This document shows, in pieces, positions 5,116 through 53,455 of a stretch of 64,000 nt of DNA. The DNA is from a bacterium. GTDB taxonomy: Bacteria; Patescibacteriota; Saccharimonadia; CAILAD01; GCA-016700035. The translations under genes were made by a program, and so were the position numbers. The stretch is taken from NCBI GenBank assembly GCA_016700035.1, contig CP064998.1:727551-791550 (forward strand). The letters run 5' to 3'. The notes below the pieces were generated by a model. The model was not told the DNA's origin. It saw only the letters and a program-made list of their open reading frames with translations, and made no database searches. Within the stretch, counting starts at the first letter, position 1; each line of letters begins with the position of its first letter.

Positions 5116-5146
5116 AAAAACGCCCAAGACGAGCTTGGGCGTTTTT
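5116..5146 (-). terminator. Intrinsic terminator hairpin (A5, stem cgcccaag/cttgggcg, T5). On the minus strand it sits immediately 3' of the tRNA-Glu remnant (attL), so it is probably the ancestral tRNA-Glu terminator.
   Basis: Sequence aaaaacgcccaagacgagcttgggcgttttt forms a perfect 8-bp GC-rich stem flanked by A and T runs, so it is bidirectional in form. It directly abuts the 19-bp tRNA 3'-end repeat. Confidence 0.6.
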
Positions 5147-5164
5147 GGTGACCCCACGGGGAAT
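5146..5164. repeat. attL: a 19-bp direct repeat (tggtgaccccacggggaat) identical to the 3' end of tRNA-Glu at 30474-30492, T-arm 3' half plus acceptor stem plus CCA.
   Basis: An exact 19-mer occurs at both coordinates. Flanks diverge immediately on both sides. The partner copy lies inside a tRNA next to a serine recombinase gene. Confidence 0.7.
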
Positions 5165-5259
5165 ACACTGTATAACTTCCTAAAAATGCTCGAAACAAGT
5201 TTCTGCGCGTTTTTTTTCGTTAGCGAACCCCTGCGGGGTTCGGCTCTCTCGCGAGAGCT

Positions 5260-5302
5260 ACCAAAGAAAAAGCCCGAGACAAGCTCGGGCTTTTTCTTTG
5301 GT
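5260..5302. promoter_or_regulatory. Perfect 19-bp-arm inverted repeat (accaaagaaaaagcccgag / ctcgggctttttctttggt, 5-nt loop). It is a sequence relative of the 5116-5146 terminator and belongs to a cluster of three palindromes (5230-5302) just inside the element end.
   Basis: The arms are exactly complementary. Nearby are the palindromes gaacccctgcggggttc and ctctcgcgagag. It could be a bidirectional terminator, or an oriT or recombinase/repressor binding region. Confidence 0.45.
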
Positions 5303-5424
5303 GAGCTCTCGTGTATTTGGGTGGAACACCCTGGAGGACGATCTCATACAATTATACAGGAATCTTGTGGAGCTGGGGGTTGAGTATCATGATGGTAAAG
5401 TCTACCTAGCCGATCTGGAGGAAG

Positions 5425-5898
5425 ATGATGTTTAGGAGACACACTAAGCGATACCAAACTGACCTGTTCAATCAGAACACATTCGATAAACCGTTTTTAC
5501 GAGATTTACACAACTGCCGAGAAAGCCTGATTATAGAAAGCCCGTTTATACGATCAAAGCGAGTTGAGGCTCTAATGCCCATACTCTCTAGGCTCCGCAG
5601 ACGTAATGTAAAAGTGACTATCAACACTCGTAACCCTATTGAGCATGATTATGAGTACCGACTGCAAGCCGAGCAGTCTATTGAGATGTTCCAAGCCCTC
5701 GATATTCAGGTACTTTATACGGTACGCCATCATAGAAAACTAGCAATTATTGACCGCTCAGTCATTTGGGAGGGTAGCCTTAATATTCTCTCTTATTACG
5801 ATAGTTGTGAGATAATGAGGCGGACAGCTTCTGCATATGATGCAGAAAGGCTGATTAAATTTATTGGACTGCAAAAGTATTTGCAGCGTGTGAGTTAA
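5425..5898 (+). CDS. Phospholipase-D superfamily single-HKD nuclease (Nuc-like endonuclease), 157 aa.
   Basis: The motif HxKx4Dx6GSxN is present as HRKLAIIDRSVIWEGSLN. The ~155-aa single-HKD size is typical of Nuc-family nucleases on conjugative plasmids. Confidence 0.65.
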   Translation: MMFRRHTKRYQTDLFNQNTFDKPFLRDLHNCRESLIIESPFIRSKRVEALMPILSRLRRRNVKVTINTRNPIEHDYEYRLQAEQSIEMFQALDIQVLYTVRHHRKLAIIDRSVIWEGSLNILSYYDSCEIMRRTASAYDAERLIKFIGLQKYLQRVS

Positions 5899-5902
5899 AA
5901 CT

Positions 5903-6139
5903 ATGTTAGACAAGAATGATTTTCAGAAAGTAAATCTATCCAAGGATGAAGAAGCTATAGCCAAGGCTATTAACTTGTTGAAGTACCATGACCCAGAGAA
6001 CGCAACCAGGGAAAATGCAATCTCGTACCTTGAATATATGTTCACAGCCGCAGAGTGGGCCAGCAAGCAAACTGATCTTACTTTTGATGACTTTTACGAA
6101 AAATATAGGGCAGAACAAGCAAAGAAATCTGGCAGTTAA
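5903..6139 (+). CDS. Hypothetical small acidic protein (78 aa).
   Basis: ORF immediately downstream of the PLD gene on the same strand. No recognisable motif. Confidence 0.3.
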   Translation: MLDKNDFQKVNLSKDEEAIAKAINLLKYHDPENATRENAISYLEYMFTAAEWASKQTDLTFDDFYEKYRAEQAKKSGS

Positions 6140-8721
6140 CCTGCGACTTCTTCAATTCCTAATCCTTGAGTGACAAGCTCAGGCTCTTTGGTAGCCTCCT
6201 CTTTAGATGTCTTGGGCTTACTGACTGGTTTGGTTTTCTTCGGTTCCTGTTTCTTGGCAAATGTTTCTTGTGAATGCTTTATAGCCCGCTTCGCAATCTT
6301 CACACTACCCTCATCTTCAAGTAATAAAGTTTGACCGGATAACGGTTCTTGAGAACGAACGGCAGACAACTTGGCATAGAAGTTATAGGCTGGTAAGTTA
6401 CTCATCTCGCCTGGCTCAATATACGGTGCAAATAACGGCAGTAGTAACCGTTCATCTTCAGGGTTACCACTCCTAAAACTAATGACTGTACCGACATTGG
6501 CTAAGATTATACTGACCATCTGTTGGTCTTTCTGCTGTGAAGTAGATTGCTCAGCCATGACCATGAACATTTTATATTTCCTCGCCTCAGATAGCATCTG
6601 TACAAATGAAGCGGTGGCAAAGTTTTGGAACTCATCAACATACAGATAGAAATGACGACGTTCTTTTTGAGGTATGCGAGCCCGGCGCAGACTTGCCAGC
6701 TGGAGTTTAGCCAGTACAGTAATACCAAACAGCTCTGAAGTATCTTCACCAAGCAGCCCTTTAGAAAAGTTACAAATCAGTATTTTGCCACTATTGATAA
6801 TGTCATCAAAATCAATTGTAGACTTTGGCTGTTCAAGCACTTGACGAGCAGAGGCCGAGAATAGAAATCGACCAATCTTAGCCGTAATACCGGCTGCCAT
6901 CTTTACTTTCTGCATATCACCAGCTTTGCCAAGTTCATTCTTCCAGAAGTTAATCAGGTTTTTGTCTTTTAGGTTCTTGAGCACCGCTTTTCTATACTTC
7001 GTGTCATTGAGTAAATCAAAGACCGTAAATAAGGTCGCATCCTCAATTGTTAAGGCCGTCTGAATGGTGTTACGTAGGACATATTCAATACGGTGTCCGC
7101 CAGTATCTTCCTCAGAGAATATTTTACGGAACACTGATATGACCGACTCCGTAATAAGGTCTTTCTCTCTAAGCAGCTCATTTCCAGAGATACCAGGCGT
7201 CAGTTCCAAGAGATTAAGCCCAAGCGGGTACTCTAGGTCGTCAGGATTAAAGTAGACTACATCATTCACTCGTTCTGGCGGTACATGTCTGAGTAGCGTT
7301 TCCGCCATGTCACCGTGTGGGTCAACCACGGCTAAGCCTTTCCCACTTTCCATATCCTGCACAATCGAGTACTGCATGATGGTCGTTTTACCGTTACCCG
7401 TACCACCAATAATATAGACGTGGCGTTCACGCTCAGCTTCAACTAAACCAATTGGTGTCTGAACTCCATGGTGAATATTCTCACCTAAGATTACATCAAG
7501 CACCTTGCTTTGCTTCAGCGAAACTGGTGCTGGCAAAGTTCGGCTTAATGAAGTAATCAGGTTATCTGTTTTACTGATGCTACTTGAGGGAAAGTGATAC
7601 AAACTCGCCACTTCAGCAGCCGACAATATGAGTGATCGTTTTTTGAACAGACTCGGTAGTCGCACATTGGCCAGCCTTTTCTGATAACCCGCTATCAATG
7701 GTAATCGTAATTTGGTGCGCAGTGCCTGATACGGCGGCATCGAGTAGCCGTCAAGAGCCGATCGTAGCGCCTCAAGCTGCTGTGTAGCGTGGTCACTGCT
7801 AGCCAGTACCCGCAAGCTAACCTGGAATAATGGCTGGGTGACTTTTTGGTGCATTGATTCCATCAGCTCCAATTCAAAGGCGCTGAGGGTTCTAGCTGGT
7901 CGCTGGCGTTTTTGGACTTGCGCCTGGAACGCAGCGTCCTTACTCGACTTGTCCTTATAGTAAGAGGAGGTAGAGCCGTTATAGACTTCGCCGATTGTAT
8001 CAGTCACCCCAATCATGGCACTACCCAGTAGTTCGCTTATCTTACCAACCTTAGAGAAACCACCCAAGGAAACTTTGCGAAGTATATCTTCGTTGCCTAA
8101 TATCCGACGAGACAACCGTGAGGCTTCATTAAGTTTGACTGGAGTCACCACTAACTGCATGGTCAACTGCTCATCGTCACTGAGTTTTGTCATAGCCGCA
8201 GTGACGTAAGACAGTGGGTCATGCTGCTCAAAAGTACGAGTAGACATCAGCGGCAGCACGTAGTGGTGGGCTTGCTTAAATTCAATGACGTTTGCTGGGT
8301 CAAATGGCTGGTAGTCGATAGGTTTTACTTTGGCATCAGGAATGTAGGCAGTAATAGTTTTCTCAAGAATATCTGCTCGTGTTTGCTCAACCTGTATAAG
8401 GTAGCGAATCCCGTCTCGTTTGGTGGAAACTATCTCAAAACTTAGTACTGGCGTTCGATCAAGCAACCGCTCTTTCAGTGAGCGAGCAGCCCGTAAGCCA
8501 TGTATGACCGAAAACAATTGTATGGTCGATTCTGGTGTTTTCTCGAGTTGAGCTGGTGGTGTCAGCTCTAGCCAGACCATTACTCGCCGTTTAAGATAGC
8601 GGCGGTTGATAACTACTCTCACGAGGGCAATAAACCAATAGAGTACAAACAGTAGCAGTAGCCCAGCCAGCACAAACAGACACAAGCGAATTATGGTTGC
8701 GAAATAGGCTGAGGTGTCCAC
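6136..8721 (-). CDS. Type IV coupling protein (VirD4/TraG/TcpA-like ATPase), 861 aa.
   Basis: N-terminal TM helices. Walker A YIIGGTGNGKTT, then AVVDPHGD. Walker B YLYVDEFQNF. The motif ARKYKMFMVMAEQSTSQ is typical of T4CP/TraG-family proteins. Confidence 0.7.
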   Translation of the reverse strand: MDTSAYFATIIRLCLFVLAGLLLLFVLYWFIALVRVVINRRYLKRRVMVWLELTPPAQLEKTPESTIQLFSVIHGLRAARSLKERLLDRTPVLSFEIVSTKRDGIRYLIQVEQTRADILEKTITAYIPDAKVKPIDYQPFDPANVIEFKQAHHYVLPLMSTRTFEQHDPLSYVTAAMTKLSDDEQLTMQLVVTPVKLNEASRLSRRILGNEDILRKVSLGGFSKVGKISELLGSAMIGVTDTIGEVYNGSTSSYYKDKSSKDAAFQAQVQKRQRPARTLSAFELELMESMHQKVTQPLFQVSLRVLASSDHATQQLEALRSALDGYSMPPYQALRTKLRLPLIAGYQKRLANVRLPSLFKKRSLILSAAEVASLYHFPSSSISKTDNLITSLSRTLPAPVSLKQSKVLDVILGENIHHGVQTPIGLVEAERERHVYIIGGTGNGKTTIMQYSIVQDMESGKGLAVVDPHGDMAETLLRHVPPERVNDVVYFNPDDLEYPLGLNLLELTPGISGNELLREKDLITESVISVFRKIFSEEDTGGHRIEYVLRNTIQTALTIEDATLFTVFDLLNDTKYRKAVLKNLKDKNLINFWKNELGKAGDMQKVKMAAGITAKIGRFLFSASARQVLEQPKSTIDFDDIINSGKILICNFSKGLLGEDTSELFGITVLAKLQLASLRRARIPQKERRHFYLYVDEFQNFATASFVQMLSEARKYKMFMVMAEQSTSQQKDQQMVSIILANVGTVISFRSGNPEDERLLLPLFAPYIEPGEMSNLPAYNFYAKLSAVRSQEPLSGQTLLLEDEGSVKIAKRAIKHSQETFAKKQEPKKTKPVSKPKTSKEEATKEPELVTQGLGIEEVAG

Positions 8722-9275
8722 GGGGCGGCTCCTTTCTTATCATGTATGAATGTATAGTAGGCGGCTGATTCTCGTGCAAACGTTCGTTGGCTGACAATAT
8801 TAAGTCCAACGTAGTTCATTTCCGAGATTGTCCATGCGCCAGTCTGACTATTGACGGCAATAACGTAAGCCACGTGTCCCCACTTACCGTTGTCGGACTG
8901 AAAAATCGCTCCGACAGCTGGCGTGTGATTCACTGCATAGCCATCACGAATCGCCCGATCATCCCAGGTATTAGCATCGCCCCACGTGGTTGGAATCGGG
9001 TAGCCTGCCGACAGGCGCATCGAAAATGCCCAGTAGGTACAGTTGCCCCACTCATAGGTATTGCCCGCAACTGGCCCACCCATGTAAAACCCCTGGGATT
9101 CGGCCGCTGCCAGGCTCGGCACATTAGATAGAAACGACACTACGTCCTCGCCCATGGCAAAGACGGCTGCAAACGGCAACGCCACAATAACCGCCATAGT
9201 GGCCAGCACCAGGCTGATCTGTTTTTTAACATTTCCGCCTGTCACCACATTAAGTGCGACCAGGGCTGGATTCAT
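8691..9275 (-). CDS. CHAP-domain peptidoglycan hydrolase (T4SS cell-wall hydrolase, functional analogue of VirB1/Orf14/TcpG), with an N-terminal TM helix.
   Basis: CHAP catalytic pattern GNCTYWA...GYPIP...WGDANTWDDRA...VGAIF...GKWGHVAYV with conserved Cys and His. Positioned between the VirB4 and T4CP genes. Confidence 0.7.
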   Translation of the reverse strand: MNPALVALNVVTGGNVKKQISLVLATMAVIVALPFAAVFAMGEDVVSFLSNVPSLAAAESQGFYMGGPVAGNTYEWGNCTYWAFSMRLSAGYPIPTTWGDANTWDDRAIRDGYAVNHTPAVGAIFQSDNGKWGHVAYVIAVNSQTGAWTISEMNYVGLNIVSQRTFARESAAYYTFIHDKKGAAPWTPQPISQP

Positions 9276-11032
9276 GCGTAGAGCTCCGTCGGGTCAGTGG
9301 TAATCAGCGGATGTTCTTTATCACTGGCCACAACCTTAACAGCAACGTGGTTCTGGTCGGCAATAATCAGGGCATCGCCACGCCCGCAGGTCAGCAGAAA
9401 GTTTTCCTCGTACTCACTCAAATGAAACTCGCTCGCCACATTCTTAATAGTGGTAGTGTCCTGGCGCATGAGAATTCTTAGGCTACTCTGTGAAGCGATC
9501 ACCCGACCATAGTTACTTTTGAGGAAATCATCAGCTTGCTGGGTAACAAACGATACACCGAGGTAGTATTTACGAGCCCGACGGACCAGTCCAGCAATAA
9601 AGCGGGCACTTGGTTCATGCTCTAGCAGTGACCAACCCTCATCAATCACCAACAGTCGCTTTTCGGGTTTTACTTTGACTTGGTTTTGAATGAAGTTAGA
9701 AACAATCAACATCATGATTGGCCTGAGATTAGCCGGCATATCTTTAATGTCAAAAATCACTAAACGGTTATCCAGTTTGATGTTAGTCTGTGAGTTAAAG
9801 ATTTCAGCACTGGAGCCACTAATATATTTCTCTAGCCGTTCACACAGTTGCAATTGACCAAGGCTGTGTAGTTCAGCATACAAATCTTCAAGCAGTGGAT
9901 GTTGCTTCTTAGCTTTTCTGTAGACTCGTAAGATTGCTTTATCGACCGCCGCTTTCTCACGTTTATCCAGTCCCTCCGCCATCAGGTCAATCACGGCCGT
10001 CAGGTCTTGGACGTGCTCAGCCAGGTCAGCTTTAGTGTGAAAAGTGGTTGCTAGGTCAAATGGGTTAATCTTTTGTTTGCTTTTAGCCGACAGTTTGATA
10101 TAGGTACCGTTGACGGTTTCACTCAGTCGTTTATATTCACGCTCTGGGTCAATCACCAGCACTTTCGTGCCTTGCATCAGTTGTCTAAGTATCTCAACCT
10201 TAGTGGTATAGCTTTTACCCGAGCCGGATTGAGCAAACACAATTGAATTGGCATTATGCAAGCTAAAACGATCCAAAATAACCAGCGAGTTATTGGACTT
10301 ATTCACGCCATACAAAATACCGGACTCTTGCACGAGTTCAGATGACATAAACGGAAATGTTAACGCTGCACTGGAGCTATCTAAGTTTCTCTTTTGCGCT
10401 AATTGATCTTCGCCTCTAGGCAAAATAGATTGCAAGGCTTCAAGTTGTTGGTAGCGGGCTACTTTGGAATAAAACAACCGAGCTGACATAGTTGCTTCCA
10501 GTAACTTGGTAGTTTTGTTGAGCTCCTCCAAGCTATCGGCTCGGATAGCTACGTAGATAGACATTTGAAACAGTTTTTCCTGGCCACGTTGGATTTTGTC
10601 TCTCAGTTCAATCGCCGATTCGAGCGGGTCAGTGATTTCTGAGCCAATAATCTTACCAGCTTGCATCATCGAGCGTCTGGTGCTTTCCAGTTCGGTAATC
10701 TTGCGGTGCAGTTTTGGCAGGGCGTGCAAGGCACTGACTTCATACAGATGGTAGCTAATGTCGGTATTGTGGTTGAAGTTAATGATGCTATCCAACCAAC
10801 CGGAACTGGCCGTAAATGGATAGCCAGAAATATAGATCGTCCGCATGTACACACCGTCGATCACGAGGTGGTCAACGTTTTCCTCTAGTCCAGCGTAACT
10901 AAGAGCATCAACGGCATCTTGTTCGCCAAATGCTAAGTTCAGTTCTTTTTGCTTTTCTTGCCTAGTTTTTTGGTAATTTTGCAGTGGTTCCAGCACTTTA
11001 TTGATATCAATCATCGGGGTCTCCTTTCTCAA
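9272..11032 (-). CDS. VirB4/TraC/TrbE-family conjugative ATPase, C-terminal ATPase portion (586 aa).
   Basis: Walker A AQSGSGKSYTTK. LVIDPEREY. Walker B-like RLLVIDEGWSLL. Sized as the C-terminal two-thirds of Gram-positive VirB4 homologues. Confidence 0.7.
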   Translation of the reverse strand: MRKETPMIDINKVLEPLQNYQKTRQEKQKELNLAFGEQDAVDALSYAGLEENVDHLVIDGVYMRTIYISGYPFTASSGWLDSIINFNHNTDISYHLYEVSALHALPKLHRKITELESTRRSMMQAGKIIGSEITDPLESAIELRDKIQRGQEKLFQMSIYVAIRADSLEELNKTTKLLEATMSARLFYSKVARYQQLEALQSILPRGEDQLAQKRNLDSSSAALTFPFMSSELVQESGILYGVNKSNNSLVILDRFSLHNANSIVFAQSGSGKSYTTKVEILRQLMQGTKVLVIDPEREYKRLSETVNGTYIKLSAKSKQKINPFDLATTFHTKADLAEHVQDLTAVIDLMAEGLDKREKAAVDKAILRVYRKAKKQHPLLEDLYAELHSLGQLQLCERLEKYISGSSAEIFNSQTNIKLDNRLVIFDIKDMPANLRPIMMLIVSNFIQNQVKVKPEKRLLVIDEGWSLLEHEPSARFIAGLVRRARKYYLGVSFVTQQADDFLKSNYGRVIASQSSLRILMRQDTTTIKNVASEFHLSEYEENFLLTCGRGDALIIADQNHVAVKVVASDKEHPLITTDPTELYA

Positions 11033-11642
11033 TCAGGGCGGTGTGGATGAGACTCAGGGCCGTTTCAGTCAGCGGTTGAACTTTAGCCTGAACAGGACTA
11101 TAGAAGCTGTAGAACAAATCAAGAATCTCCAAGCTACCAAGCTGGCGAGTGTGCATACCAAGCCGAGACATTCCCTTAGTCACGATGTCTATTTTGAGAT
11201 TGAGTTGCTCTTTAATTAACTCAAAGTCTGTTTTATTGTCAGCAGTGTACGGAATAATCAGGTAGAAGTGGCGGGTCAGGATTTTGTTGCTAGTAATCAG
11301 CGAGCGGATGAACTCATCGTAATTATGTAGTTGTTTTTGGTAGATTTTTTCAGTCTCACCTTTGAGGCGCTCCGCCAGATCTTCCAGGTATTTATCCATG
11401 TCAATCTCACGAGTACGAATCAGGACTTGTATGTTAGTGCCGAGTGAGTTTAAGAAATTCTCGTAGGTGTCTATGATAGCGTCCTGCTCAGTCTCACTTT
11501 TCAGCTCAAAGTTCAGTGCCGATACTTGCAGCACCACTCGGTACTGGTTGTGCGGCAAAAGCAATATACCGTCTCGTACGCCCTTAATAGCGATCTGGGA
11601 CCGAGCGCTACTTTTAGTCCTCGACTTCTGTAAGGCGAACAT
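11007..11642 (-). CDS. Probable N-terminal domain of a split VirB4 (211 aa). It overlaps the downstream ATPase ORF by 26 nt in another frame.
   Basis: 211 + 586 aa is about 800 aa, the size of PrgJ/TcpF/Orf16-type VirB4. The two ORFs are adjacent, on the same strand and overlapping. No independent motif was found in this piece. Confidence 0.4.
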   Translation of the reverse strand: MFALQKSRTKSSARSQIAIKGVRDGILLLPHNQYRVVLQVSALNFELKSETEQDAIIDTYENFLNSLGTNIQVLIRTREIDMDKYLEDLAERLKGETEKIYQKQLHNYDEFIRSLITSNKILTRHFYLIIPYTADNKTDFELIKEQLNLKIDIVTKGMSRLGMHTRQLGSLEILDLFYSFYSPVQAKVQPLTETALSLIHTALIEKGDPDD

Positions 11643-12117
11643 ATAAGGCTCCTTTCTTGGTCATTTCAAATCTTAAATTACTGCCAGGTTTGTTGATGGT
11701 TTCTAGCACTTGGGCAGCATCGTGAAAGGCTAGTTTCGGTAGAGGTGGTACCTTTGCGGCTGTCGTGCTTGTCTGCTCACTTGCATCAGTTTTTTTGATC
11801 GTATATTCTTCTCGGTAATCAGCACTTTTCTGAAATACATAGTGCCGAGGACGCAGGTTATAGCGCAGAATTGTAACCAGCCAGAAAAGCACAATCTTGC
11901 CTTTGATGCGGATAGCCAGGATGCCGGATAGAAGTGCAATCACACTCATCACCAGGTACTTATATATGTTGCCCTCCATAATAGGCGGCAGTATGACAAA
12001 TAGTCCGGCACCAACAAAGATTGGTACGATACATAACACCAGTTGAGAGAAACCCAGGTTACCCATAATCCGATCTTCTACGGTAGTAACTTGGGCGGGA
12101 ACGGCAGTGCTTCTCAT
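11614..12117 (-). CDS. VirB3/PrgI-like small T4SS membrane protein (167 aa, two TM helices).
   Basis: Two hydrophobic helices (IVPIFVGAGLFVILPP, LVMSVIALLSGILAI). Located directly upstream of VirB4, as in Gram-positive T4SS loci. Confidence 0.4.
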   Translation of the reverse strand: MRSTAVPAQVTTVEDRIMGNLGFSQLVLCIVPIFVGAGLFVILPPIMEGNIYKYLVMSVIALLSGILAIRIKGKIVLFWLVTILRYNLRPRHYVFQKSADYREEYTIKKTDASEQTSTTAAKVPPLPKLAFHDAAQVLETINKPGSNLRFEMTKKGALYVRLTEVED

Positions 12118-13604
12118 GATTTTGTCTCCTTACTTTTACTTGCTGATTGCTTGATAGCTCCATCTCGAGGGGTTGGCTTCAGGGCCTCATTAGTCGTACC
12201 AGTCTTACCGGACACCAATGTGCCTTTACGGTGTGGTGTGCTTGGGCTAGCTTCAGCACCTCTCTTGGTGGCATAACTCGCAGTCTGAGTCCGATCGGTC
12301 TTGAGTCCTTGCGGATGAGTGCCAGTGTGTGATCCAGCTGATTTCACACCACTAGTCTTACTGCCAGCTGCGCCTGCCACTGCTTTACCTTTGCCAGTCA
12401 TGTAGCTAACACCATTCATAAACTGGCTGCCGAGCTTGCGGGCATTACGTGAGCCCATGCTGACATAGCTAAACTGCATCATGACACCTTGGGTTTTGAG
12501 TAGCACCAGTACCGTAGCTAGTCCAACTACCATCGACATCAGGACATTCGGCACCTGATTATCCCCACTCGTCGCCGACATACCGGTAAACAGGGTGGCG
12601 GCCAGCATCAGTGTCACCACATGCACAAACAGCACAAAGATCGTCGTCACATAGGTCTTGATTGCCGACACCGAAAAGTCTCGGAAACTAGGGATTAGCC
12701 ACAATGCAATTACCATCGGGGACAGTACTGCACCCAGAAATAGCACGACTAAACGGCCGACGTAGTAGACCAGCAATATGACCGAGAAGATTAAAAAAGC
12801 CAGCATGACCAGCAGTGCTGCTGCACCTTGACCACCACTTTCTTTAACTACTGCCGTCAGTGTGTCCCAGACTGAACTCGCACCACTGACTTTAGTAATT
12901 GCAGTAATCAGTACGTTGGATAGTTCGATCAGAGCATCGATGAAGAAGATCGAGGTGTTGATGAGCAAGAAAGCCAGCCCTAGCCGGGGCAGCAACTTCT
13001 TGATATCGAGCTCATCGAAGCCAAATGTCGTTGCACTCATAACGTGGAAACCGAGCAGTGCCACTATCAGAATAAACAGCACATCCGTAATGCCAACTAC
13101 TGCCAACCATAGACTAAAGACCCCTGAGTTTTGCAGCATCAGGGGTGTCTCTTTCGTAAAGTAATCCAGCGCCGCAAGGAACGGCGCAGCCACCGCTTGA
13201 ATTATATTATTGAGAAATCCCGTCACCGCTTTAATTAACACTTCTACCAAGCCACTACCAACATTATCAGGTTCAATCGCTTGAAGTGTTGGCAGTGTGG
13301 CGTTATTGGTGCCCGATGGGTCACCATAAGCACCAGATAAAATCGTGGTCAGTGTGGCAGCACCAAGGACTAAGACCAGACCAATCAGGGCGTTCTTAAT
13401 AACCCGTTTGGCATTTTCCAGAGCCTCGGGATTGCCGCTGCTGGTGATGTACTGATAGCCACCATTGACCAGGAAAAAGACACAGGCGATTGAGGCCAGA
13501 CCGGCTAGCACCCGAATAGTCGGTCCAACGTAATCCCGCATTACGGTGATAGCACCCGAGGTGTCCGCCAGGATTGGCAGACTACTGTGCACGACATTAA
13601 TCAC
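12114..13604 (-). CDS. VirB6/TrbL-like polytopic T4SS membrane protein (496 aa), with a low-complexity S/T/G/K-rich C-terminal tail.
   Basis: At least six predicted TM helices. The N-terminal segment shares the motif YITSSGNPE with the upstream pilin-like protein. The C-terminal 120 aa are Ser/Thr/Gly/Lys-rich. Confidence 0.5.
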   Translation of the reverse strand: MINVVHSSLPILADTSGAITVMRDYVGPTIRVLAGLASIACVFFLVNGGYQYITSSGNPEALENAKRVIKNALIGLVLVLGAATLTTILSGAYGDPSGTNNATLPTLQAIEPDNVGSGLVEVLIKAVTGFLNNIIQAVAAPFLAALDYFTKETPLMLQNSGVFSLWLAVVGITDVLFILIVALLGFHVMSATTFGFDELDIKKLLPRLGLAFLLINTSIFFIDALIELSNVLITAITKVSGASSVWDTLTAVVKESGGQGAAALLVMLAFLIFSVILLVYYVGRLVVLFLGAVLSPMVIALWLIPSFRDFSVSAIKTYVTTIFVLFVHVVTLMLAATLFTGMSATSGDNQVPNVLMSMVVGLATVLVLLKTQGVMMQFSYVSMGSRNARKLGSQFMNGVSYMTGKGKAVAGAAGSKTSGVKSAGSHTGTHPQGLKTDRTQTASYATKRGAEASPSTPHRKGTLVSGKTGTTNEALKPTPRDGAIKQSASKSKETKS

Positions 13605-13608
13605 GGTG

Positions 13609-13947
13609 TTACCCTCCGAATGCGCTGCTTGCCAGTGAAGTTACGATATTGCTAATCACAAATGCACCGATCACGATAGCCAGGCCAATCAAGGAGTAGG
13701 TAATTGTTTTCTTACCACGATCTAAATGTTCAGGATTACCGGAGCTGGTGATATAGATAAAACCACCTGCAACTAAAAAGCCGGTCGCAACAAGACCGGC
13801 TAGTCCAGCAAAAACCGTGATAATTGATCTAATAAAGTTTTCGACATTACTAACCCCAGCAGTTGCAGCCAAAACAGGCGGAGCATACAAAAGTTGAGTC
13901 CCTGTTACCAAAAAGGCTATGAGTTTTAACTTAGTCCTAGATCGCAT
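13609..13947 (-). CDS. VirB2/TrbC-like pilin-family protein (113 aa): signal peptide plus two hydrophobic helices separated by a short polar loop. Start reassigned to ATG at 13947 with an upstream AAGGAGG RBS.
   Basis: MRSRTKLKLIAFLVTGTQLLYAPPVLAATAG is signal-peptide-like. The helices are FAGLAGLVATGFLVAGGFIYI and SLIGLAIVIGAFVISNIVT. The rc of cctcctt at 13954-13960 is the RBS. Confidence 0.45.
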   Translation of the reverse strand: MRSRTKLKLIAFLVTGTQLLYAPPVLAATAGVSNVENFIRSIITVFAGLAGLVATGFLVAGGFIYITSSGNPEHLDRGKKTITYSLIGLAIVIGAFVISNIVTSLASSAFGG

Positions 13948-14201
13948 GTTACTCCTCCTTATGTCTGTAATAAATCTAGCACACACTATTGCGTACATGC
14001 AAATTATATTATATACATAAGCAATATAAGGGGTGCGGCGTTGCCGCTTCATTGACAGGTTTGCTACACTAGTAGAGTGAAAGCTAAGATAAAAACTCGA
14101 AAACATAGACCACTTAGGCGTAAATTAGTCAGCTCGAAACTCAAACTTACACCGTACCTTGATATACCGCTCAAGTAGAATCATGACTCAAGGACAAAAC
14201 C

Positions 14202-14230
14202 TTGACATTATCTTAGAATTATATTATAGT
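14202..14230 (+). promoter_or_regulatory. Consensus sigma-70-type promoter P1 (TTGACA, 17-nt spacer, TATAGT) upstream of the DGR target gene.
   Basis: ttgacattatcttagaattatattatagt: exact -35 hexamer, 17-bp spacer, near-consensus -10. Confidence 0.5.
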
Positions 14231-14265
14231 TATATTCCTAATTTTCGGCGCGCTTTTTCTAAATT

Positions 14266-14293
14266 TTGACACTATGCTAAAGCTTGTTATAAT
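14266..14293 (+). promoter_or_regulatory. Second consensus promoter P2 (TTGACA, 16-nt spacer, TATAAT), overlapping the first ATG of the ORF track.
   Basis: ttgacactatgctaaagcttgttataat: perfect -35 and -10 hexamers. This implies translation starts downstream at ATG 14307. Confidence 0.5.
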
Positions 14294-14306
14294 ATTTTTG
14301 AATACC

Positions 14307-15191
14307 ATGAAGCGTGATGTACAACCCAGATCAAGTTTGAACACCGGCCGCCAAATTCTCGATAAATTTGTACGGTCAAGGCATAGTCGTGCCGCCATAC
14401 TCCTGGGAATTCTCGTCGCCGTTACTTTTGTCGGACTGAGAGTCTACCACGCCTACGCCGAAACGTACCCAGGCGGCAGCGACAATGGCCAGACCTCCCG
14501 TCTCAAAAGTTTGTCCGACGATCTGCAAACTTTAGGCTTCGGCAGCCCGACCAACTCCCCAGATTGGGGTTCTTTGTGGAATCGCATCAACACAGCATCT
14601 CGCTGGACACCGCCAGGTGATGTCACCACCTCGGACGTTCGTCTCGGAAAAAAGTTTTACAACAACAATCGCACAGAGCAGACCGGCACACTTTCAGCTG
14701 TTGGTCCGTGCCCAACTCAGGACTGGAACGACGGTCACGCCTCAGCCAATCAGACCGCAAACTGTGTCGACACTGTCACCTGGACAGTTCCATCACCAGT
14801 CGTCACTGGAGACGACAAGCGTGACCCTCGCACCGGACTTGCCTGGAGTCAGTGTCTCATCAACAGCAGTGGTACTGTGACTTTCGGACCATCTGGTTGC
14901 ACCAGCTGGTCCTGGGACGCCTCCGCTGCTGCCAATGTGGCAGTCGGTGGTAAAACGGCATCCCAGTTGTGCTCCGAGCGCAACGGCGGAGGCGTTTGGC
15001 GTCTTCCCACTCAGAAAGAACTCATGCAGGCCTACATTGACGGCTCAAGCTACAACCTTACTTCCACCGGTGCGACCCACTGGAGTCTGACCCAGTTCTC
15101 GGGTTCGGTTGCGTGGTTCGTGTACCTCAGTAATGGCACCACGGGTACCACCAATAAGACGAGTACCTACTATGTCCGTTGCGTCCGGTAA
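14307..15191 (+). CDS. DGR target protein: membrane-anchored, with a C-terminal C-type-lectin/DUF1566-like domain carrying the variable region. The ORF track starts at 14274, but 14307 is preferred because of promoter P2.
   Basis: TM helix AAILLGILVAVTFVGLRVY. The C-terminal WRLPTQKELMQAYIDGSSYNLTS...VRCVR resembles the DUF1566/FGE-type CLec fold of DGR targets. The last ~120 nt match TR 18479-18601 except at TR adenines. Confidence 0.8.
   Translation: MKRDVQPRSSLNTGRQILDKFVRSRHSRAAILLGILVAVTFVGLRVYHAYAETYPGGSDNGQTSRLKSLSDDLQTLGFGSPTNSPDWGSLWNRINTASRWTPPGDVTTSDVRLGKKFYNNNRTEQTGTLSAVGPCPTQDWNDGHASANQTANCVDTVTWTVPSPVVTGDDKRDPRTGLAWSQCLINSSGTVTFGPSGCTSWSWDASAAANVAVGGKTASQLCSERNGGGVWRLPTQKELMQAYIDGSSYNLTSTGATHWSLTQFSGSVAWFVYLSNGTTGTTNKTSTYYVRCVR
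15066..15188 (+). repeat. VR1: the active variable region of the DGR target gene.
   Basis: Codon-by-codon alignment with the TR. All 17 differences fall on TR adenines (for example aac to acc, ttc, tac or ggt). The shared 3' IMH-like end is gtccgttgcgtccgg. Confidence 0.8.
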
Positions 15192-15329
15192 TCATTTGGT
15201 TATTGGATTATTTGGTTATTAGTCTTACCGCCGTAGGCGGCCGAAGCAATTTTTTTCGGGGGTAGGAGTAAAGGGTAGTTTTGCCTTAAGGCTTAGAGAC
15301 ACTGAAGCTTTGCTATATACTACTCTACA

Positions 15330-15716
15330 ATGAAGATATTCGATATTCTTTTTGAAGATGGTGCAGAACCTGAACCCCACGAAATACAGACTGCACTCTT
15401 CCTGCGTAAGACAGGTAAGAAAATAACGTTCATAGCACCCAAGAATCGAACCGGTGTGAAAACACCAGATATCCGCATGGATAGCTTACATTGGGAAATT
15501 AAATCGCCTATGAGTGCCAGTGCACGATCAATTGAACATGCTTTTCGTAGCGCTCTTAAACAGTCCGGAAATGTGATATTTGACTTGCGGCGTAGCAAGG
15601 CAAGTGACATGGCTAATCTAGCAAAAATAAACCGACAGATAAAGTTGATAAAGGGTAAGAAACTACGACGGGTACTCGTAATCACAAAGAAAGAAAAACT
15701 ACTTGACTTAAAGTAA
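15330..15716 (+). CDS. Hypothetical 128-aa protein with a possible PD-(D/E)xK nuclease-fold motif.
   Basis: The segment GVKTPDIRMDSLHWEIKSP carries a PD...ExK arrangement with 11-aa spacing. This is weak, single-motif evidence. Confidence 0.3.
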   Translation: MKIFDILFEDGAEPEPHEIQTALFLRKTGKKITFIAPKNRTGVKTPDIRMDSLHWEIKSPMSASARSIEHAFRSALKQSGNVIFDLRRSKASDMANLAKINRQIKLIKGKKLRRVLVITKKEKLLDLK

Positions 15717-15838
15717 CTATTCATGCTAATGTATTGGTACAGGCACCGAGGCCTCTGCTGGATAGCTAGGGTTGCGGTGTCTTTATATGTATGTTTACTT
15801 ATGGTCAGTGACTAGACTTCAGGCTGCTTCCTTCCATA

Positions 15839-16027
15839 TTACCGGACGCAACGGACAAGGCGGGCACCCGTCTTAGCGGCGGTTTCCGTGACGCCATTAC
15901 CAAGGTACACCTGCCACGCACCAGTAACCGAGTTATGAGTCAAACTCCAGTGGGCCGCAGCGGTGGAAGTAAGGTTGTAGCTTGAGCCGTCAATGTAGGC
16001 CTGCATGAGTTCTTTCTGAGTGGGAAG
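15839..16027 (-). repeat. VR-like cassette 2 (minus strand): a promoterless 3' fragment of a target-type gene with a distinct variable region.
   Basis: It encodes ...PTQKELMQAYIDGSSYNLTSTAAAHWSLTHNSVTGAWQVYLGNGVTETAAKTGARLVRCVR*. The 5' and 3' ends (VRCVR plus stop) are conserved. The variable part has the same length (35 codons) as VR1 and the TR. Confidence 0.65.
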
Positions 16028-16110
16028 ACGGCTTGAACACTCCAAGTATAGCGGATTACTTATATTACCAAAAGTTGCCATCTTTAACTACTTTTGGTAG
16101 TATTGATATT

Positions 16111-17331
16111 ATGCTACTGCAACGAACCGAATATATCGATAGGCTACTCAAGCTTAGAGATAAAAATGTCATAAAGGTTATCACTGGTGTTCGCCGTTCG
16201 GGTAAGTCAACACTATTATCGATATATCGCAGTAAACTTGAGGAAAGTGGTGTGAGTCAGGCACGCATACAAACCTATAACTACGAAGATCCTCGAGTGA
16301 ATGACATGCTTGACTGGCGCGAAATATATCACTCTATAGAGAGCAAGCTCGTGAGTGATACGAAAAACTACGTGTTTCTAGATGAGATACAAGTTGTTCC
16401 TGAGTTCGAGAAATTAGTGGATGGTCTGTTTATTCATGATGACATCGACTTATACATTACTGGTTCAAATGCGTTCTTGCTATCGAGCGAACTAGCGACG
16501 CTTCTATCGGGTAGATACATTAGTACTCATGTTCTGCCTTTGTCTTTCGCTGAATACTCCCAGGCGTTTCCTGATGAGAATAGGGATCGTGTTTTTGAGC
16601 GCTACCTGAACAGTAGCACGCTACCTGAGACAATAGAGATCGCCGAAGGCAGTCCAGAGCTCGTTGCTGACTACGTGCGTGACGTATATCAGACGGTGGT
16701 ACAAAAAGACATTCGGAGTCGTTTTGCAATCCGCGATATGGATAACTTCGAAAAAGTCGTCAAGTTTGCTTTCGATAACATTGGCAACCTCGTATCTGCC
16801 AAAAGTATTGCTGATGCTCTGAATGCAGGCAATACTGCACATCAGCAAGACATATCACACAAAACAGTCACAAACTATCTCGAGTATCTCACGACATCAT
16901 ACCTTCTCTACAAAGCTGACCGCTACGATATTAAAGGTAAACAGCTCCTTAAAACACAAGAAAAATACTATGCGGTTGATCTCGGACTACGGAGCGTGTT
17001 GCTGGGGCAAAGGACAGATATTGATCTTGGGCATAAGCTTGAAAACATCGTGTATCTGGAATTACGCCGTCGCAATAACGGTCACATTCTCGTCGGTAAG
17101 TCAGATAGTAAAGAGGTGGATTTTGTCGTACAAAACACATCCGATGATCGGCAGTATTACCAGGTCGCCCTGACGGTTAAGGACGAAAAAACACTTGCCA
17201 GAGAGCTTGAGCCACTCCAAAGAATTCGTGACAATTACCAGAAGATTCTCTTAACGACTGATTACGATGACAGTGTGTATGAGGGCATCCGTAAGATCAA
17301 CGTGGTTGATTGGTTACTTACCACTGAATGA
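16111..17331 (+). CDS. AAA+ ATPase of the COG1373/DUF4143 family (406 aa from ATG 16111).
   Basis: P-loop GVRRSGKSTLL. Walker B VFLDEIQ. Length and motif order are typical of COG1373 ATPases. Confidence 0.6.
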   Translation: MLLQRTEYIDRLLKLRDKNVIKVITGVRRSGKSTLLSIYRSKLEESGVSQARIQTYNYEDPRVNDMLDWREIYHSIESKLVSDTKNYVFLDEIQVVPEFEKLVDGLFIHDDIDLYITGSNAFLLSSELATLLSGRYISTHVLPLSFAEYSQAFPDENRDRVFERYLNSSTLPETIEIAEGSPELVADYVRDVYQTVVQKDIRSRFAIRDMDNFEKVVKFAFDNIGNLVSAKSIADALNAGNTAHQQDISHKTVTNYLEYLTTSYLLYKADRYDIKGKQLLKTQEKYYAVDLGLRSVLLGQRTDIDLGHKLENIVYLELRRRNNGHILVGKSDSKEVDFVVQNTSDDRQYYQVALTVKDEKTLARELEPLQRIRDNYQKILLTTDYDDSVYEGIRKINVVDWLLTTE

Positions 17332-17437
17332 ACTAAAGCTCATCTAAGGATATTCGAAGATACCTTAATGGGCATACCAGATACATATCATGGTCAATTT
17401 CAGTAGATTGAGTTGTGGTAGCTTCCTTGCACAATAC

Positions 17438-18601: not shown

Positions 18602-18671
18602 TACAGGGGCGCCTTTCTTTTTAATAAGGTTAGTAAACCCAATAATGAATCTTTCCCACTTAAGATAAGAA

Positions 18672-53440: not shown

Positions 53441-53455
53441 ACTTATGCTAACCGT

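Follow-up and report, generated by a model that had tools for sequence, protein, structure and literature searches.

A Patescibacteria-clade T4SS operon in a probable integrative conjugative element of a Saccharibacterium, with VirB4 encoded as two genes and a candidate MOBC-type relaxase

The closest described relatives of the locus considered here are the Patescibacteria-clade type IV secretion systems (T4SSs), for which the layout of TrsD followed by VirB4 has already been published and in which standalone TrsD is a described component, remotely homologous to the VirB4 N-terminus (PMC12102498). According to published surveys, relaxases occur in only a small minority of Patescibacteria genomes with a T4SS (PMC12102498), and the prevailing published view is that the T4SSs of Saccharibacteria serve protein secretion or DNA uptake and not conjugation (PMC10633639, PMC11665869). 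The cluster of Southlakia epibionticum (SEML1_0006-0019; Wang et al. 2023, PMC10633639) is essential for epibiosis and has no recognisable coupling protein (T4CP) or relaxase, which makes a non-conjugative role plausible for this family of machines.

Here, we have analysed a stretch of 64,000 nucleotides (the window; contig CP064998.1, positions 727,551 to 791,550) from a Saccharibacterium. On balance, we favour the reading that its T4SS region is the transfer module of a conjugative ICE of ~25.2 kb, located at the 3' end of a tRNA-Glu gene.

The operon and the element that carries it

The minus-strand operon at 6136-14106 consists of seven genes, and Pfam and NCBIfam profile matches confirm both their identities and the order, from pilin to coupling protein, that an earlier note had read from the DNA. 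They are given below together with two adjacent genes (GA, gathering score).

13609-14106, minus strand: VirB2-type pilin (Pfam T4SS_pilin and TrbC, both above GA); 112 aa from the later start chosen in public gene calls
12114-13604, minus strand: pilin-like N-terminal domain (Pfam T4SS_pilin) fused to a VirB6/TrbL-like polytopic membrane protein (TrbL_3 PF19590, precomputed)
11614-12117, minus strand: PrgI/VirB3-like membrane protein (Pfam PrgI, 32.5 bits, GA 27)
11007-11642, minus strand: TrsD-like protein of 211 aa, a standalone VirB4 N-terminal domain (NCBIfam, Pfam PF26593 TraC-like, AF2 model)
9272-11014 (longest ORF to 11032), minus strand: VirB4 ATPase body, 580 aa from ATG 11014 (NCBIfam CD1110 family; Pfam P-loop_TraG and AAA_10)
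8691-9275, minus strand: CHAP peptidoglycan hydrolase, a VirB1 analogue (Pfam CHAP, E 1.2e-16)
6136-8721, minus strand: VirD4-type coupling ATPase (T4CP) with N-terminal TM segments, DUF8128 and P-loop (Pfam TrwB_AAD_bind 32.3 bits, GA 20.5; TraG-D_C 26.6 bits, GA 22; partial NCBIfam matches to SXT_TraD, CedD and CD1115)
5903-6139, plus strand: conserved small protein of 78 aa, kept with the PLD gene in 16 loci; no family match in the Pfam and NCBIfam profile scans
5425-5898, plus strand: PLD/Nuc-like nuclease with HxK motif (Pfam PLDc_2, 31.6 bits, above GA)

Across a set of 80 related loci, nearly all from Saccharibacteria, the seven-gene order is conserved; in 68 loci the T4CP gene follows those of VirB4 and the CHAP protein, and in 40 the PLD nuclease is linked to the T4SS. 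The VirB4 is 67-90% identical to those of Saccharibacteria species representatives. The system is a Patescibacteria-clade, MPF_FATA-like machine with VirB2 pilin, pilin-VirB6 fusion, VirB3/PrgI, VirB4, CHAP hydrolase and VirD4-like coupling ATPase, and its description as a Gram-positive-style module thus holds.

We are highly confident that this operon is carried by an integrative mobile element of ~25.2 kb, extending from about 5299 to 30479. The element had been presumed in the earlier note; its borders could now be set, and its mobility shown, by comparison with near-identical copies. The end structures are the following.

5146-5164: outer repeat of 19 nt, an exact match to the tRNA-Glu 3' end (30474-30492)
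5299-5304: left junction core TGGTGA, antisense of the tRNA 3' end TCACCA; homology stops here and the element begins at 5305
5301-5435, plus strand: "tail" reading frame, 44 codons and stop, continuing the frame of the serine recombinase across the core
28383-28586, plus strand: small ribbon-helix-helix (RHH)-like protein (weak Pfam RHH_10 match, E 0.0024, below GA)
28802-30514, plus strand: large serine recombinase, or integrase (Pfam Resolvase and Recombinase, above GA)
30474-30479: right junction core TGGTGA
30474-30548, minus strand: tRNA-Glu(UUC), the integration target (ARAGORN)

The last 12 codons and the stop of the recombinase are read from the antisense of the tRNA-Glu gene. In most of the related loci scanned that hold the recombinase, a tRNA gene abuts its 3' end, mostly Glu, with single cases of Arg, Phe and Lys and several Leu isoacceptors, and the same end structure is seen in 22 of 24 species-representative loci. 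At the other end, near-identical copies diverge exactly at ...GAGCTCACCA, after which four different terminator hairpins and flanks follow. The outer 19-nt repeat, for which shuffled sequences give an expectation of 0, lies 135 bp outside the element junction with its own terminator hairpin next to it (5118-5145), and is probably a relic of an earlier integration.

The stop of the tail frame overlaps the PLD start, and the frame is conserved at the protein level beside PLD in at least 30 loci. In one locus (L173/P0396) it is fused in frame to the C-terminus of the recombinase, which is an attP-type junction. The tail may accordingly be read as the recombinase C-terminus in the excised form, although this junction involves a diverged recombinase and could represent a tandem array instead of a circle.

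The copies of the element (L161-L166) are 99.4-100% identical and lie in four different chromosomal contexts. A comparison of two of them (L161 and L165) gives an identity of 99.77% for the element and of 65.7% for the flanking PK-PGK-TIM genes, and the PGK of the copy-bearing genomes has 38-40% amino-acid identity to that of the window. These sequence comparisons show that the element has spread horizontally and recently.

Counted from the tRNA, the element holds the serine recombinase, three small ORFs (the RHH-like one, possibly a relaxosome accessory or excision factor, flanked by 28129-28323 and 28609-28818), a divergent Replic_Relax nuclease, MacB, a surface protein, an IS, a diversity-generating retroelement (DGR), a CdiA_C ORF, the T4SS operon, the 78-aa ORF and PLD. 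The cargo is listed below (Pfam assignments unless otherwise stated).

21684-26953, plus strand: 1106-aa surface protein (fn3/Ig-like) and MacB-type ABC transporter
20298-21670, minus strand: IS481-like insertion with rve transposase (NCBIfam transpos_IS481, Pfam rve)
14274-20341: cargo block with DGR, CdiA_C ORF and AAA_14 ATPase (Pfam, repeats)
17866-18222, 18481-18603 and 19226-20341: bAvd, TR and RT of the DGR, which has Lcl_C target genes
16033-17331: AAA_14 ATPase
15330-15716: CdiA_C toxin-domain ORF

In the DGR, 15 of 16 TR/VR1 mismatches fall at TR adenines. A MacB gene is met in this position, between relaxase candidate and T4SS, in related elements too, and the IS481-like insertion is private to this copy, being absent from the otherwise collinear L171.

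The following course of transfer can be proposed. Crossover by the serine recombinase within the core TGGTGA would excise the element and restore a longer recombinase ORF running into the PLD operon, as the L173 junction suggests. The Replic_Relax protein would then bind and nick an oriT, probably in the intergenic region 27907-28128, and the coupling ATPase would pass the DNA to a channel powered by VirB4/TrsD, with the pilins mediating contact. In the recipient, the recombinase would integrate the element at a tRNA 3' end.

Another option considered is that the T4SS does not conjugate at all but is a host-interaction machine of Saccharibacteria, delivering effectors or importing nucleic acids or nutrients from the host bacterium. 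On this view, the roles of the recombinase and of the Replic_Relax protein would be limited to the integration, excision or regulation of a T4SS-carrying island. Since Saccharibacteria are naturally competent (PMC10633639), such an island could spread by transformation and site-specific integration, or by another route. The essential role of the homologous S. epibionticum cluster in epibiotic growth, with neither relaxase nor T4CP there (PMC10633639), and the rarity of relaxases near Patescibacteria virB4 (PMC12102498) are in line with this, as are the surface/adhesin-type cargo and the DGR. However, the operon here includes a VirD4-type coupling ATPase, the att-bounded element around it also encodes a MOBC-family protein, the order relaxase-recombinase-T4SS-PLD recurs over deep divergence, and an identity of 99.8% for the element against 66% for housekeeping DNA is what is expected of a self-transmissible element. 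We regard the purely host-interacting machine as a serious but rather doubtful alternative to a conjugative element. It is important to point out that a role in host interaction and conjugation are not mutually exclusive.

The candidate relaxase

We now turn to the protein that would process the DNA in a conjugative element.

27091-27906, minus strand: candidate MOBC-type relaxase (Replic_Relax, Pfam PF13814: wHTH and PD-(D/E)XK-like nuclease domain)

The earlier note had found no recognisable relaxase and had named an HMM search of the hypothetical ORFs as the test. In a Pfam scan of all element ORFs of at least 100 aa, no HUH-type relaxase was found, but the very wHTH protein that had been offered as a possible substitute passes the gathering score of PF13814 (33.1 bits against 25.3, E 7.8e-8), so that the claim does not stand. 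The match is modest. This family has been equated with the MobC relaxase superfamily of CONJscan by Coluzzi et al. 2017 (PMC5357655) and classified as a PD-(D/E)XK fold (PMC3424549). The AF2 model (pLDDT 90.8) combines a wHTH with an alpha-beta-beta-beta-alpha-beta domain, and its top fold matches include FokI and BstEII (ranks 1-3 and 20). In the alignment PD153, D170 and E212 are conserved, but there is no obvious counterpart to the canonical (D/E)xK lysine.

Among 80 relaxase-anchored loci, the large majority of those whose upstream sequence is long enough have this gene and the serine recombinase as a divergent pair. Where ~9 kb or more is available on the downstream side, about half of the loci contain T4SS genes, which start about 4.7-9 kb downstream of the relaxase candidate. 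When the loci are anchored on the T4SS instead, the candidate is found within 10 kb of VirB4, on either side, in only 12 species-representative loci.

Alternatively, the protein could act as a wHTH transcriptional regulator, as a recombination directionality factor or as a restriction-like nuclease of the island, with the relaxase acting in trans or no relaxase at all. In this direction point the names of its homologues in databases (PadR/HxlR-type regulators or hypothetical proteins), the fact that no NCBIfam model matches it, and the possible regulatory role that Steczkiewicz et al. noted for HTH-fused Replic_Relax proteins (PMC3424549). Its plasmid relatives are limited to proteins of 25% identity on Paenibacillus/Brevibacillus megaplasmids, which MOB-suite types as non-mobilizable. 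On the other hand, it belongs by gathering score to a family called MobC by CONJscan, its nuclease-like domain keeps the PD motif and acidic residues in a restriction-endonuclease-like fold, and the compact set of serine integrase, MobC and VirD4 corresponds to that of streptococcal IME class 8 (PMC5357655). We consider a role other than relaxase unlikely; the protein is likely a DNA-nicking enzyme and is a candidate relaxase.

VirB4 encoded as two genes

We consider it nearly certain that VirB4 is naturally encoded as two genes. The 211-aa ORF covers an N-terminal stretch of VirB4 models (positions 11-171 in the CD1110 family, E 2e-11; TrsD/TraD, E 8e-8; both NCBIfam), and the ATPase body covers positions 199-733 of the former (9272-11032; E 4e-105, above cutoff). 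The top 14 PDB fold matches of the AF2 model of the 211-aa protein are all TrwK/VirB4. The assignment proposed earlier is thereby confirmed; the VirB8-like NTF2 fold, named beforehand as the contrary outcome, did not appear. In VirB4, the TrsD-like N-terminal domain contacts VirB3 and the membrane.

As had been described, the frames of the two parts differ, but the 26-nt overlap given for them corresponds to the TTG start of the longest ORF. The likely start is ATG 11014, with AAAGGAG 7 nt upstream, which is also used in public assemblies (580 aa) and which reduces the overlap to 8 nt (ATGATTGA). A difference in frame is seen in 79 of 79 related loci, its offset being +1 in some and +2 in others, and the junction sequences vary; the Shine-Dalgarno sequence ahead of the second cistron is conserved, and an ATGA stop/start overlap, typical of translational coupling, occurs in 36. 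We thus read the two cistrons as translationally coupled. Among 2283 homologues of the 211-aa protein, the best 120 are all ~210 aa and standalone, and only one of 150 distant cluster representatives is fused (P0273, 734 aa), being collinear with both parts. A VirB3-TrsD fusion was also found (P0244).

Of the three options raised earlier (split gene, frameshift, programmed shift), only the first is retained: that the pair is a VirB4 broken by sequencing error or pseudogenization, or joined by programmed ribosomal frameshifting, has a negligible probability, since despite the overlapping ORFs that tile the full-length model collinearly and the one fused relative, the split recurs in every locus from independent assemblies with the offsets, junctions, Shine-Dalgarno sequence and overlaps described, ~20 near-identical contigs from different samples share the gene structure, standalone homologues number in the thousands, and standalone TrsD is a described T4SS component (PMC12102498).

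Comparison with known systems

With the Patescibacteria-clade T4SS (Quinonero-Coronel et al. 2025, PMC12102498), the present system shares the organism group, TrsD directly upstream and a cell-wall hydrolase downstream of virB4, and the VirB2-like pilins, VirB3/PrgI and VirB6. It differs in having a VirD4-like coupling ATPase in the operon, while t4cp is only rarely near virB4 in that survey, a MOBC-family protein and a serine integrase in the same tRNA-bounded element, and recent horizontal spread. Compared to S. epibionticum, it has a coupling ATPase, none being recognisable there, and one pilin and a pilin-VirB6 fusion instead of a six-pilin array.

The pGO1/pSK41-type MPF_FATA systems (TrsD and TrsE) likewise encode the VirB4 N-terminal domain on its own, in a ~200-aa protein upstream of the ATPase, and have a monoderm architecture without outer-membrane core components. 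The 211-aa ORF scores only 32 bits against the NCBIfam TrsD cutoff of 200 bits and is therefore a distant relative of their TrsD. Unlike these systems, the present one has pilins, a CHAP-only hydrolase and a MOBC-type candidate relaxase, and is integrated rather than on a plasmid.

Streptococcal IME class 8 (Coluzzi et al. 2017, PMC5357655) has the same combination of VirD4 coupling protein, MobC (PF13814) and serine integrase, the latter adjoining the relaxase at the element end. Members of that class are mobilizable elements with no T4SS, whereas the one here combines a complete T4SS operon with ~12 kb of cargo and targets tRNA 3' ends. The related loci L131 and L091/L092 have, within the 10 kb covered, only T4CP and PLD and no other T4SS genes, and may be IME-like counterparts.

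Finally, in SSV-type archaeal elements the integrase gene spans attP, and Tn916-type elements show circularisation-dependent expression; these precedents involve tyrosine recombinases or a different logic. For the present T4SS, the element context, and with it a recombinase gene that spans the attachment site, appear to be undescribed so far. With the crossover core inside the recombinase ORF, integration would exchange the recombinase C-terminus. It would also separate the recombinase from the PLD and 78-aa genes, which the circle would rejoin, in likeness to the SSV-type and Tn916-type elements. The difference is that the enzyme here is a large serine recombinase, of which only the last ~44 codons would be exchanged.

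Borders, attachment site and cargo of the element

A look-up of the exact 211-aa protein encoded in the T4SS operon (6136-14106) returned contigs of other samples that are 99.4-100% identical to the window over ~5299-15800. In every such contig the identity ends at one point, after ...CACGAGAGCTCACCA (5299-5304, plus-strand TGGTGA), and beyond this left core there is a different rho-independent terminator and different genes in each of the four contexts:

Sequence beyond the left core
Contigs L161/L163, and contig L165: PK-PGK-TIM
Contig L162: 1434-aa HATPase_c protein
The window: terminator, 98 nt, 19-nt tRNA relic, 1580-aa FG-GAP protein

Since the same TGGTGA also forms the last six bases of a tRNA-Glu at the other end (30474-30479), the element can be delimited to ~25.2 kb (5299-30479). 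It contains the T4SS, a coupling ATPase, a relaxase candidate, a recombinase and cargo. Over 6.5 kb the element is 99.77% identical between L161 and L165, compared with 65.7% for their PK-PGK-TIM flanks, and the PGKs of these two contigs share 38-40% amino-acid identity with that of the window. These comparisons argue strongly for an att-bounded integrative element that contains the T4SS and has recently spread horizontally, between genomes with very different housekeeping genes. As in an ICE, the borders are defined, the chromosomal contexts differ, and a site-specific recombinase is found at the element end by its target, a geometry repeated with several tRNAs in relatives:

28802-30514 (+), large serine recombinase, 570 aa, Pfam Resolvase and Recombinase
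30474-30548 (-), tRNA-Glu, overlapped by the recombinase 3' end

The tRNA abutting the recombinase 3' end in relatives is mostly Glu, with one Arg, one Phe, one Lys and several Leu isoacceptors; in L086/L142, two loci of one element, a tRNA-Val lies just past the abutting tRNA-Leu. This is the arrangement expected of a family of integrative elements with tRNA 3' ends as their targets. A second copy of the tRNA 3' end was absent from all 23 relaxase-anchored loci in which a tRNA adjoins the recombinase, the far end lying mostly beyond their 10-kb flanks. In the T4SS-anchored loci, there are 4 matches to tRNA-Glu-like 16-mers where chance would give ~0.4, an excess that is no more than suggestive. 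Six tRNA genes (Arg, Lys, Pro, Gly, Arg, His) are clustered at 49694-54854, in the housekeeping part of the window, and in the related locus L112, tRNAs for His, Gly, Arg and Lys lie ~7 kb from its own tRNA-Glu integration site.

The 3'-terminal 19 nt of the tRNA-Glu are repeated exactly at 5146-5164. This repeat was considered as the element border, but the near-identical copies place the functional junction at 5299-5304, so that the 19-mer is taken instead for an older relic. Outside the element there are two tandem units of a tRNA-3'-end-like sequence and a terminator hairpin, namely the junction core with a terminator at 5262-5298 and the relic with a terminator at 5118-5164, and the spacer in part resembles the diverged L161 flank. 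An earlier integration into this tRNA may have left the tandem units (5118-5298) behind as a scar. A search for an empty integration site, by the exact sequence of the neighbouring GH1 protein, gave no record.

The left end carries three short frames:

5301-5435 (+), 44-codon tail
5425-5898 (+), PLD nuclease
5903-6139 (+), 78-aa ORF

Running rightwards from the left core, the tail is in phase with the recombinase across TGGTGA, and its stop overlaps the PLD start codon. At least 30 T4SS loci have the tail peptide directly in front of PLD, conserved at the protein level. A database query with the synthetic recombinase-tail junction found protein P0396, on the 1566-nt contig L173. Here, a diverged serine-recombinase C-terminus continues in frame into an identical tail, followed by PLD, the 78-aa ORF and the T4CP end, and the contig is 99.77% identical to window 5291-6597. 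By its sequence, L173 represents an attP-type junction, which either a circle or a tandem array could give. It follows from this junction that integration would replace the recombinase C-terminus by 12 codons from the tRNA antisense and would part PLD and the 78-aa gene from the recombinase operon, to be rejoined to it on excision. We infer that excision rebuilds a recombinase-PLD operon and that the recombinase gene spans the attachment site. The excised attP junction is predicted to read ...CCTAATATGGTGAGCTCTCGTGTATTTGG..., and the empty attB would have the tRNA-Glu ...GGGGTCACCA and then AAGAAAAAGCCCGAG...

Twenty-four species-representative loci have the tail, among them two in complete genomes, CP011211 and CP128407 (oral taxon 488, a cultivable strain with a related element, locus L046). 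In 22 of the 24, a ...G(G/C)(C/T)CACCA-like end directly adjoins the position to which the tail start extrapolates, and a terminator hairpin usually comes next. Many of the T4SS clusters of Saccharibacteria thus seem to be bounded by an att site of this type. On the merged contig L124+L044, the tRNA-Glu and such an end are ~21.5 kb apart with the T4SS between them; this copy may be decayed, its recombinase appearing truncated.

The cargo and the nearby surface proteins are as follows:

19-4761, 1580-aa surface protein with FG-GAP/VCBS repeats and fn3/Ig, just outside the element
14274-20341, DGR, cargo: bAvd 17866-18222, RT 19226-20341, TR 18481-18603
15068-15190 (+), 15840-15962 (-) and 17435-17557 (-), DGR VR-like copies at the ends of Lcl_C-domain ORFs
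18719-18841 and 19046-19168, two further DGR VR-like copies
15330-15716, 128-aa ORF with a CdiA_C toxin C-terminal domain (E 4.8e-12), amid the DGR target genes
20298-21670, IS481-like insertion with a 415-aa rve transposase, between the DGR RT and the 1106-aa surface protein
21684-25004, 1106-aa fn3/Ig-like surface protein, inside the element, beside a MacB-type ABC transporter

Of the 16 mismatches between TR and VR1, 15 fall on TR adenines. The CdiA_C ORF is overlapped by an antisense ORF and is also present in locus L164; no immunity gene was identified for it. The 1580-aa and 1106-aa proteins are adhesin-like, which fits the essential adhesins reported for Saccharibacteria. Contig L171 is 92.6-98% identical to the recombinase-relaxase-MacB-RT part and is likewise joined to a tRNA-Glu; it lacks 20298-21670, and the IS481-like transposase insertion is therefore private to the window copy.

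The T4SS operon and its two-cistron VirB4

The operon consists of seven closely packed or overlapping ORFs on the minus strand (6136-14106). Pfam and NCBIfam bear out the gene inventory that had been drawn up in the earlier note from the sequence alone:

13609-14106 (-), VirB2-type pilin, Pfam T4SS_pilin/TrbC
12114-13604 (-), 496-aa pilin-VirB6 protein, pilin-like N-terminal domain and polytopic TrbL_3/VirB6 body
11614-12117 (-), PrgI (VirB3-like), by Pfam
11007-11642 (-), 211-aa TrsD-like ORF, NCBIfam VirB4 N-terminal and TrsD/TraD matches, PF26593
9272-11014 (-), VirB4 ATPase body, NCBIfam CD1110-family model
8691-9275 (-), CHAP hydrolase, by Pfam
6136-8721 (-), 861-aa VirD4-type coupling ATPase, TrwB_AAD_bind and TraG-D_C, both above the gathering score

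No VirB8-like component was recognised among the element ORFs by Pfam or NCBIfam. The coupling ATPase has additional, partial matches to the TraD, CD1115 and CedD models; all its matches span the profiles only in part. Its translation shows a hydrophobic N-terminus and the motifs GGTGNGKT and YVDEF. With a membrane anchor, Walker A and B motifs and TrwB/TraG-type domains, it is by sequence a VirD4-type coupling protein.

The VirB4 body reaches 352.8 bits with NCBIfam NF045971 (cutoff 325) over model positions 199-733 and also matches Pfam P-loop_TraG and AAA_10, so that the P-loop ATPase and the VirB4-type C-terminal half are present. Three models match the 211-aa ORF: CD1110-type VirB4 at positions 11-171, mycoplasma VirB4 at positions 125-281, and TrsD/TraD, the last with an E of 8e-8 and a score below the curated cutoff. 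PF26593 (TraC-like) is a precomputed match on the exact protein (P0001). Together, the two ORFs tile a full-length VirB4 (11-171 and 199-733). They form not a single polypeptide of ~750-800 aa but two cistrons in different frames, the first being a standalone TrsD/TraC-like homologue of the VirB4 N-terminus, ~200 aa long and directly upstream of virB4, with conserved adjacency.

The 211-aa ORF ends in ...GAT GAT TGA, and for the second cistron the ATG at 11014 (MIDINKV...) is the most plausible start, with AAAGGAG 7 nt upstream. With this start, the 26-nt overlap reported earlier shrinks to 8 nt, and public gene calls concur at 580 aa. In 79 of 79 related loci the two VirB4 parts are in different frames. 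The junction is an ATGA overlap in 36 of them; the others overlap by various lengths (1, 8, 11 nt or longer) or, in a few cases, are separated by a short gap. Frame offsets of +1 and of +2 both occur, and an SD-like motif is conserved. A sequencing error or a pseudogene is ruled out by this uniform difference in frame with varied overlaps and the conserved SD-like motif. A frameshift site, which would require a conserved slippery sequence, is ruled out as well. The junction pattern argues firmly for ancient, translationally coupled cistrons, that is, for a natural TrsD+VirB4 split.

The 211-aa protein has 2283 homologues, the closest 120 of which are all ~210 aa and carry PF26593. An exhaustive search of 50%-identity cluster representatives gave 2160 matches; among the best 150 of these, 111 are shorter than 260 aa and only one is a fused VirB4, the 734-aa P0273, to which the window proteins align collinearly (1-185 and 200-732). 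P0273 is a re-fused or unsplit TrsD-VirB4, a rare architecture in the same family. Another rare architecture is found in one representative, the 357-aa P0244, a VirB3(PrgI)-TrsD fusion that recalls the VirB3-VirB4 fusions of other systems.

The earlier note had set a VirB4 N-terminal domain against an unrelated, VirB8-like NTF2 fold for the 211-aa ORF. The first of these stands and the second can be rejected: in the AlphaFold2 model (pLDDT 81.7), the top 14 PDB matches are TrwK/VirB4 chains of the R388 T4SS (probability 1.0, E 6e-5 to 8e-3, TM ~0.5 on the query). The placement on the N-terminal part is taken from the NCBIfam coordinates, because the fold output does not name the aligned TrwK residues. 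The family profile gave no match to PDB sequences, and the fold comparison alone succeeded.

The relaxase candidate and its module

All ORFs of at least 100 aa between 5.3 and 30.5 kb were scanned for relaxases. There is no HUH-type relaxase among them, and PF13814 (Replic_Relax) is the sole Pfam relaxase family matched:

27091-27906 (-), relaxase candidate, Replic_Relax

This is the wHTH protein of the earlier note, whose statement that no relaxase is recognisable has to be revised, since the protein passes the PF13814 gathering threshold (33.1 bits, GA 25.3, E 7.8e-8), the match spanning 183 of the 191 profile positions. PF13814 is flagged on most of its 186 homologues. The AF2 model (pLDDT 90.8) has a winged helix (1-90) and an alpha-beta-beta-beta-alpha-beta domain, and its PDB fold matches have FokI at ranks 1-3 and BstEII at rank 20, most other high ranks being MarR-type wHTH. 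Model and matches thus give the N-terminal HTH and the restriction-endonuclease-like (PD-(D/E)XK) domain of MOBC. Conserved residues in the family are PD153, D170, E212, R166 and Y103/D105; no clear canonical (D/E)xK lysine was identified in this conserved-residue analysis. Replic_Relax has been assigned to the PD-(D/E)XK fold (Steczkiewicz et al. 2012, PMC3424549), and CONJscan recognises PF13814 proteins as the MobC relaxase superfamily (Coluzzi et al. 2017, PMC5357655).

On sequence and model, 27091-27906 belongs to Replic_Relax/MOBC. Of the MPF, T4CP and relaxase of an ICE, the T4SS and the T4CP are present, and this protein is the family-level candidate for the relaxase, a catalytic function that we infer. 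No NCBIfam model matches it or the three small ORFs beside it. A tblastn search of PLSDB gave only three 'replication-relaxation family' matches, 25-27% identical and on non-mobilizable megaplasmids, and hence no typing. An oriT inverted-repeat scan gave only a weak, AT-rich and imperfect candidate at 28028-28076, in the divergent intergenic region.

The three small ORFs, one of them weakly RHH-like by Pfam, and the 570-aa recombinase adjoin the candidate and are divergently transcribed. A metagenome scan with the relaxase-candidate alignment gave 80 loci, and the recombinase/relaxase pair is kept in the large majority of those having enough upstream sequence. Among the loci with at least 9 kb downstream, about half have T4SS genes starting ~4.7-9 kb past the candidate. 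Conversely, 12 T4SS-anchored loci have a relaxase candidate less than 10 kb from VirB4, on either side of the operon, and in L004, L006 and L068 the candidate and the recombinase lie just past the T4CP. Other arrangements were also seen, namely recombinase-relaxase-(cargo)-T4CP-PLD in L131 and L091/L092, with the 78-aa ORF also in L131, and recombinase-relaxase-MacB-78aa-PLD in L133. The rest of the T4SS is absent within the 7-10 kb of sequence of these loci, which are possibly mobilizable (IME-like) relatives of the element.

Conjugation, host interaction and known systems

The VirB4 scan of species-representative genomes gave 80 loci with VirB4 67-90% identical to that of the window, nearly all of them in Candidatus Saccharibacteria/Saccharimonadales MAGs and two in complete genomes. 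The seven-gene order is kept in every related locus long enough to contain it (tblastn, clustering). A monophyletic Patescibacteria VirB4 clade related to MPF_FATA has been described (Quinonero-Coronel et al. 2025, PMC12102498), and from these identities the window VirB4 very likely falls in it. The trait of that clade, TrsD, VirB3, VirB6 and VirB2-like pilins beside virB4, is present here as well, and the window system is the T4SS already described for Patescibacteria. The split VirB4 and the apparent absence of a relaxase, the main points of the earlier note, are already known and explained in print and ordinary for the phylum, and carry little weight alone. In the literature searched, no paper describing a Saccharibacteria ICE was found, nor were the ICE context, the relaxase-recombinase-tRNA module, the in-operon coupling ATPase and the attP-spanning recombinase found described.

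Five species-representative assemblies have two T4SS operon copies on different contigs (L016/L017, L024/L053, L045/L061, L058/L060 and L008/L078). T4SS contigs are also binned in MAGs outside Saccharibacteria (L006, Gammaproteobacteria; L037, Roizmanbacteria; L064, Nomurabacteria; L072, Sulfotelmatobacter). Duplicates and odd binning are what a mobile element of atypical coverage or composition would be expected to show.

As to what the T4SS does in Saccharibacteria and other Patescibacteria, Southlakia epibionticum, the sole species tested, cannot grow as an epibiont without the cluster (Wang et al. 2023, PMC10633639), and the role of the system is termed "completely unknown" in a perspective of 2024 (PMC11665869). 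The current view of Saccharibacteria T4SSs is of relaxase-less machines on the chromosome that have been repurposed for an epibiotic lifestyle, and the literature argues from the lack of a relaxase and of a coupling protein and from the chromosomal location that they do not conjugate. The main rival to conjugation is a role of the T4SS in host interaction, which has been proposed for S. epibionticum, with the island spreading by another route, e.g. natural transformation. In the window, a T4SS of the same family is accompanied by a MOBC-family nuclease and a coupling ATPase, all within a tRNA-integrated element with sharp borders, and the characteristic end of this element (recombinase tail, PLD, tRNA-like CCA core, terminator) stands beside the T4SS in many species-representative genomes. 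The T4SS probably conjugates the element. The two readings are compatible and do not exclude each other, and with defined att junctions and a candidate relaxase they are now directly testable against one another.

A broader proposal, which we offer tentatively and consider somewhat more likely to fail than to hold, is that the Saccharibacteria T4SSs, in many or most lineages, are the transfer modules of one widespread tRNA-integrating ICE family with MOBC-type relaxases and an attP-spanning serine integrase, still moving between distant Saccharibacteria. If so, the 'essential' T4SS would be a domesticated or dual-use conjugation apparatus. The element is also a candidate natural vector for genetics in a phylum that is hard to manipulate.

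Most Patescibacteria T4SS clusters are without a relaxase; 58 MOBC hits are reported, with 15 relaxases near virB4, and a minority is conceded conjugative potential (PMC12102498). While T4SSs of this clade are typically without a relaxase or a coupling protein, which is not strictly defining, the window copy differs in having a T4CP-like ATPase within the operon and a PF13814/MOBC candidate within the same element. Exactly the triad of VirD4, a MobC relaxase and a serine integrase is found in streptococcal IMEs (Coluzzi et al. 2017, PMC5357655).
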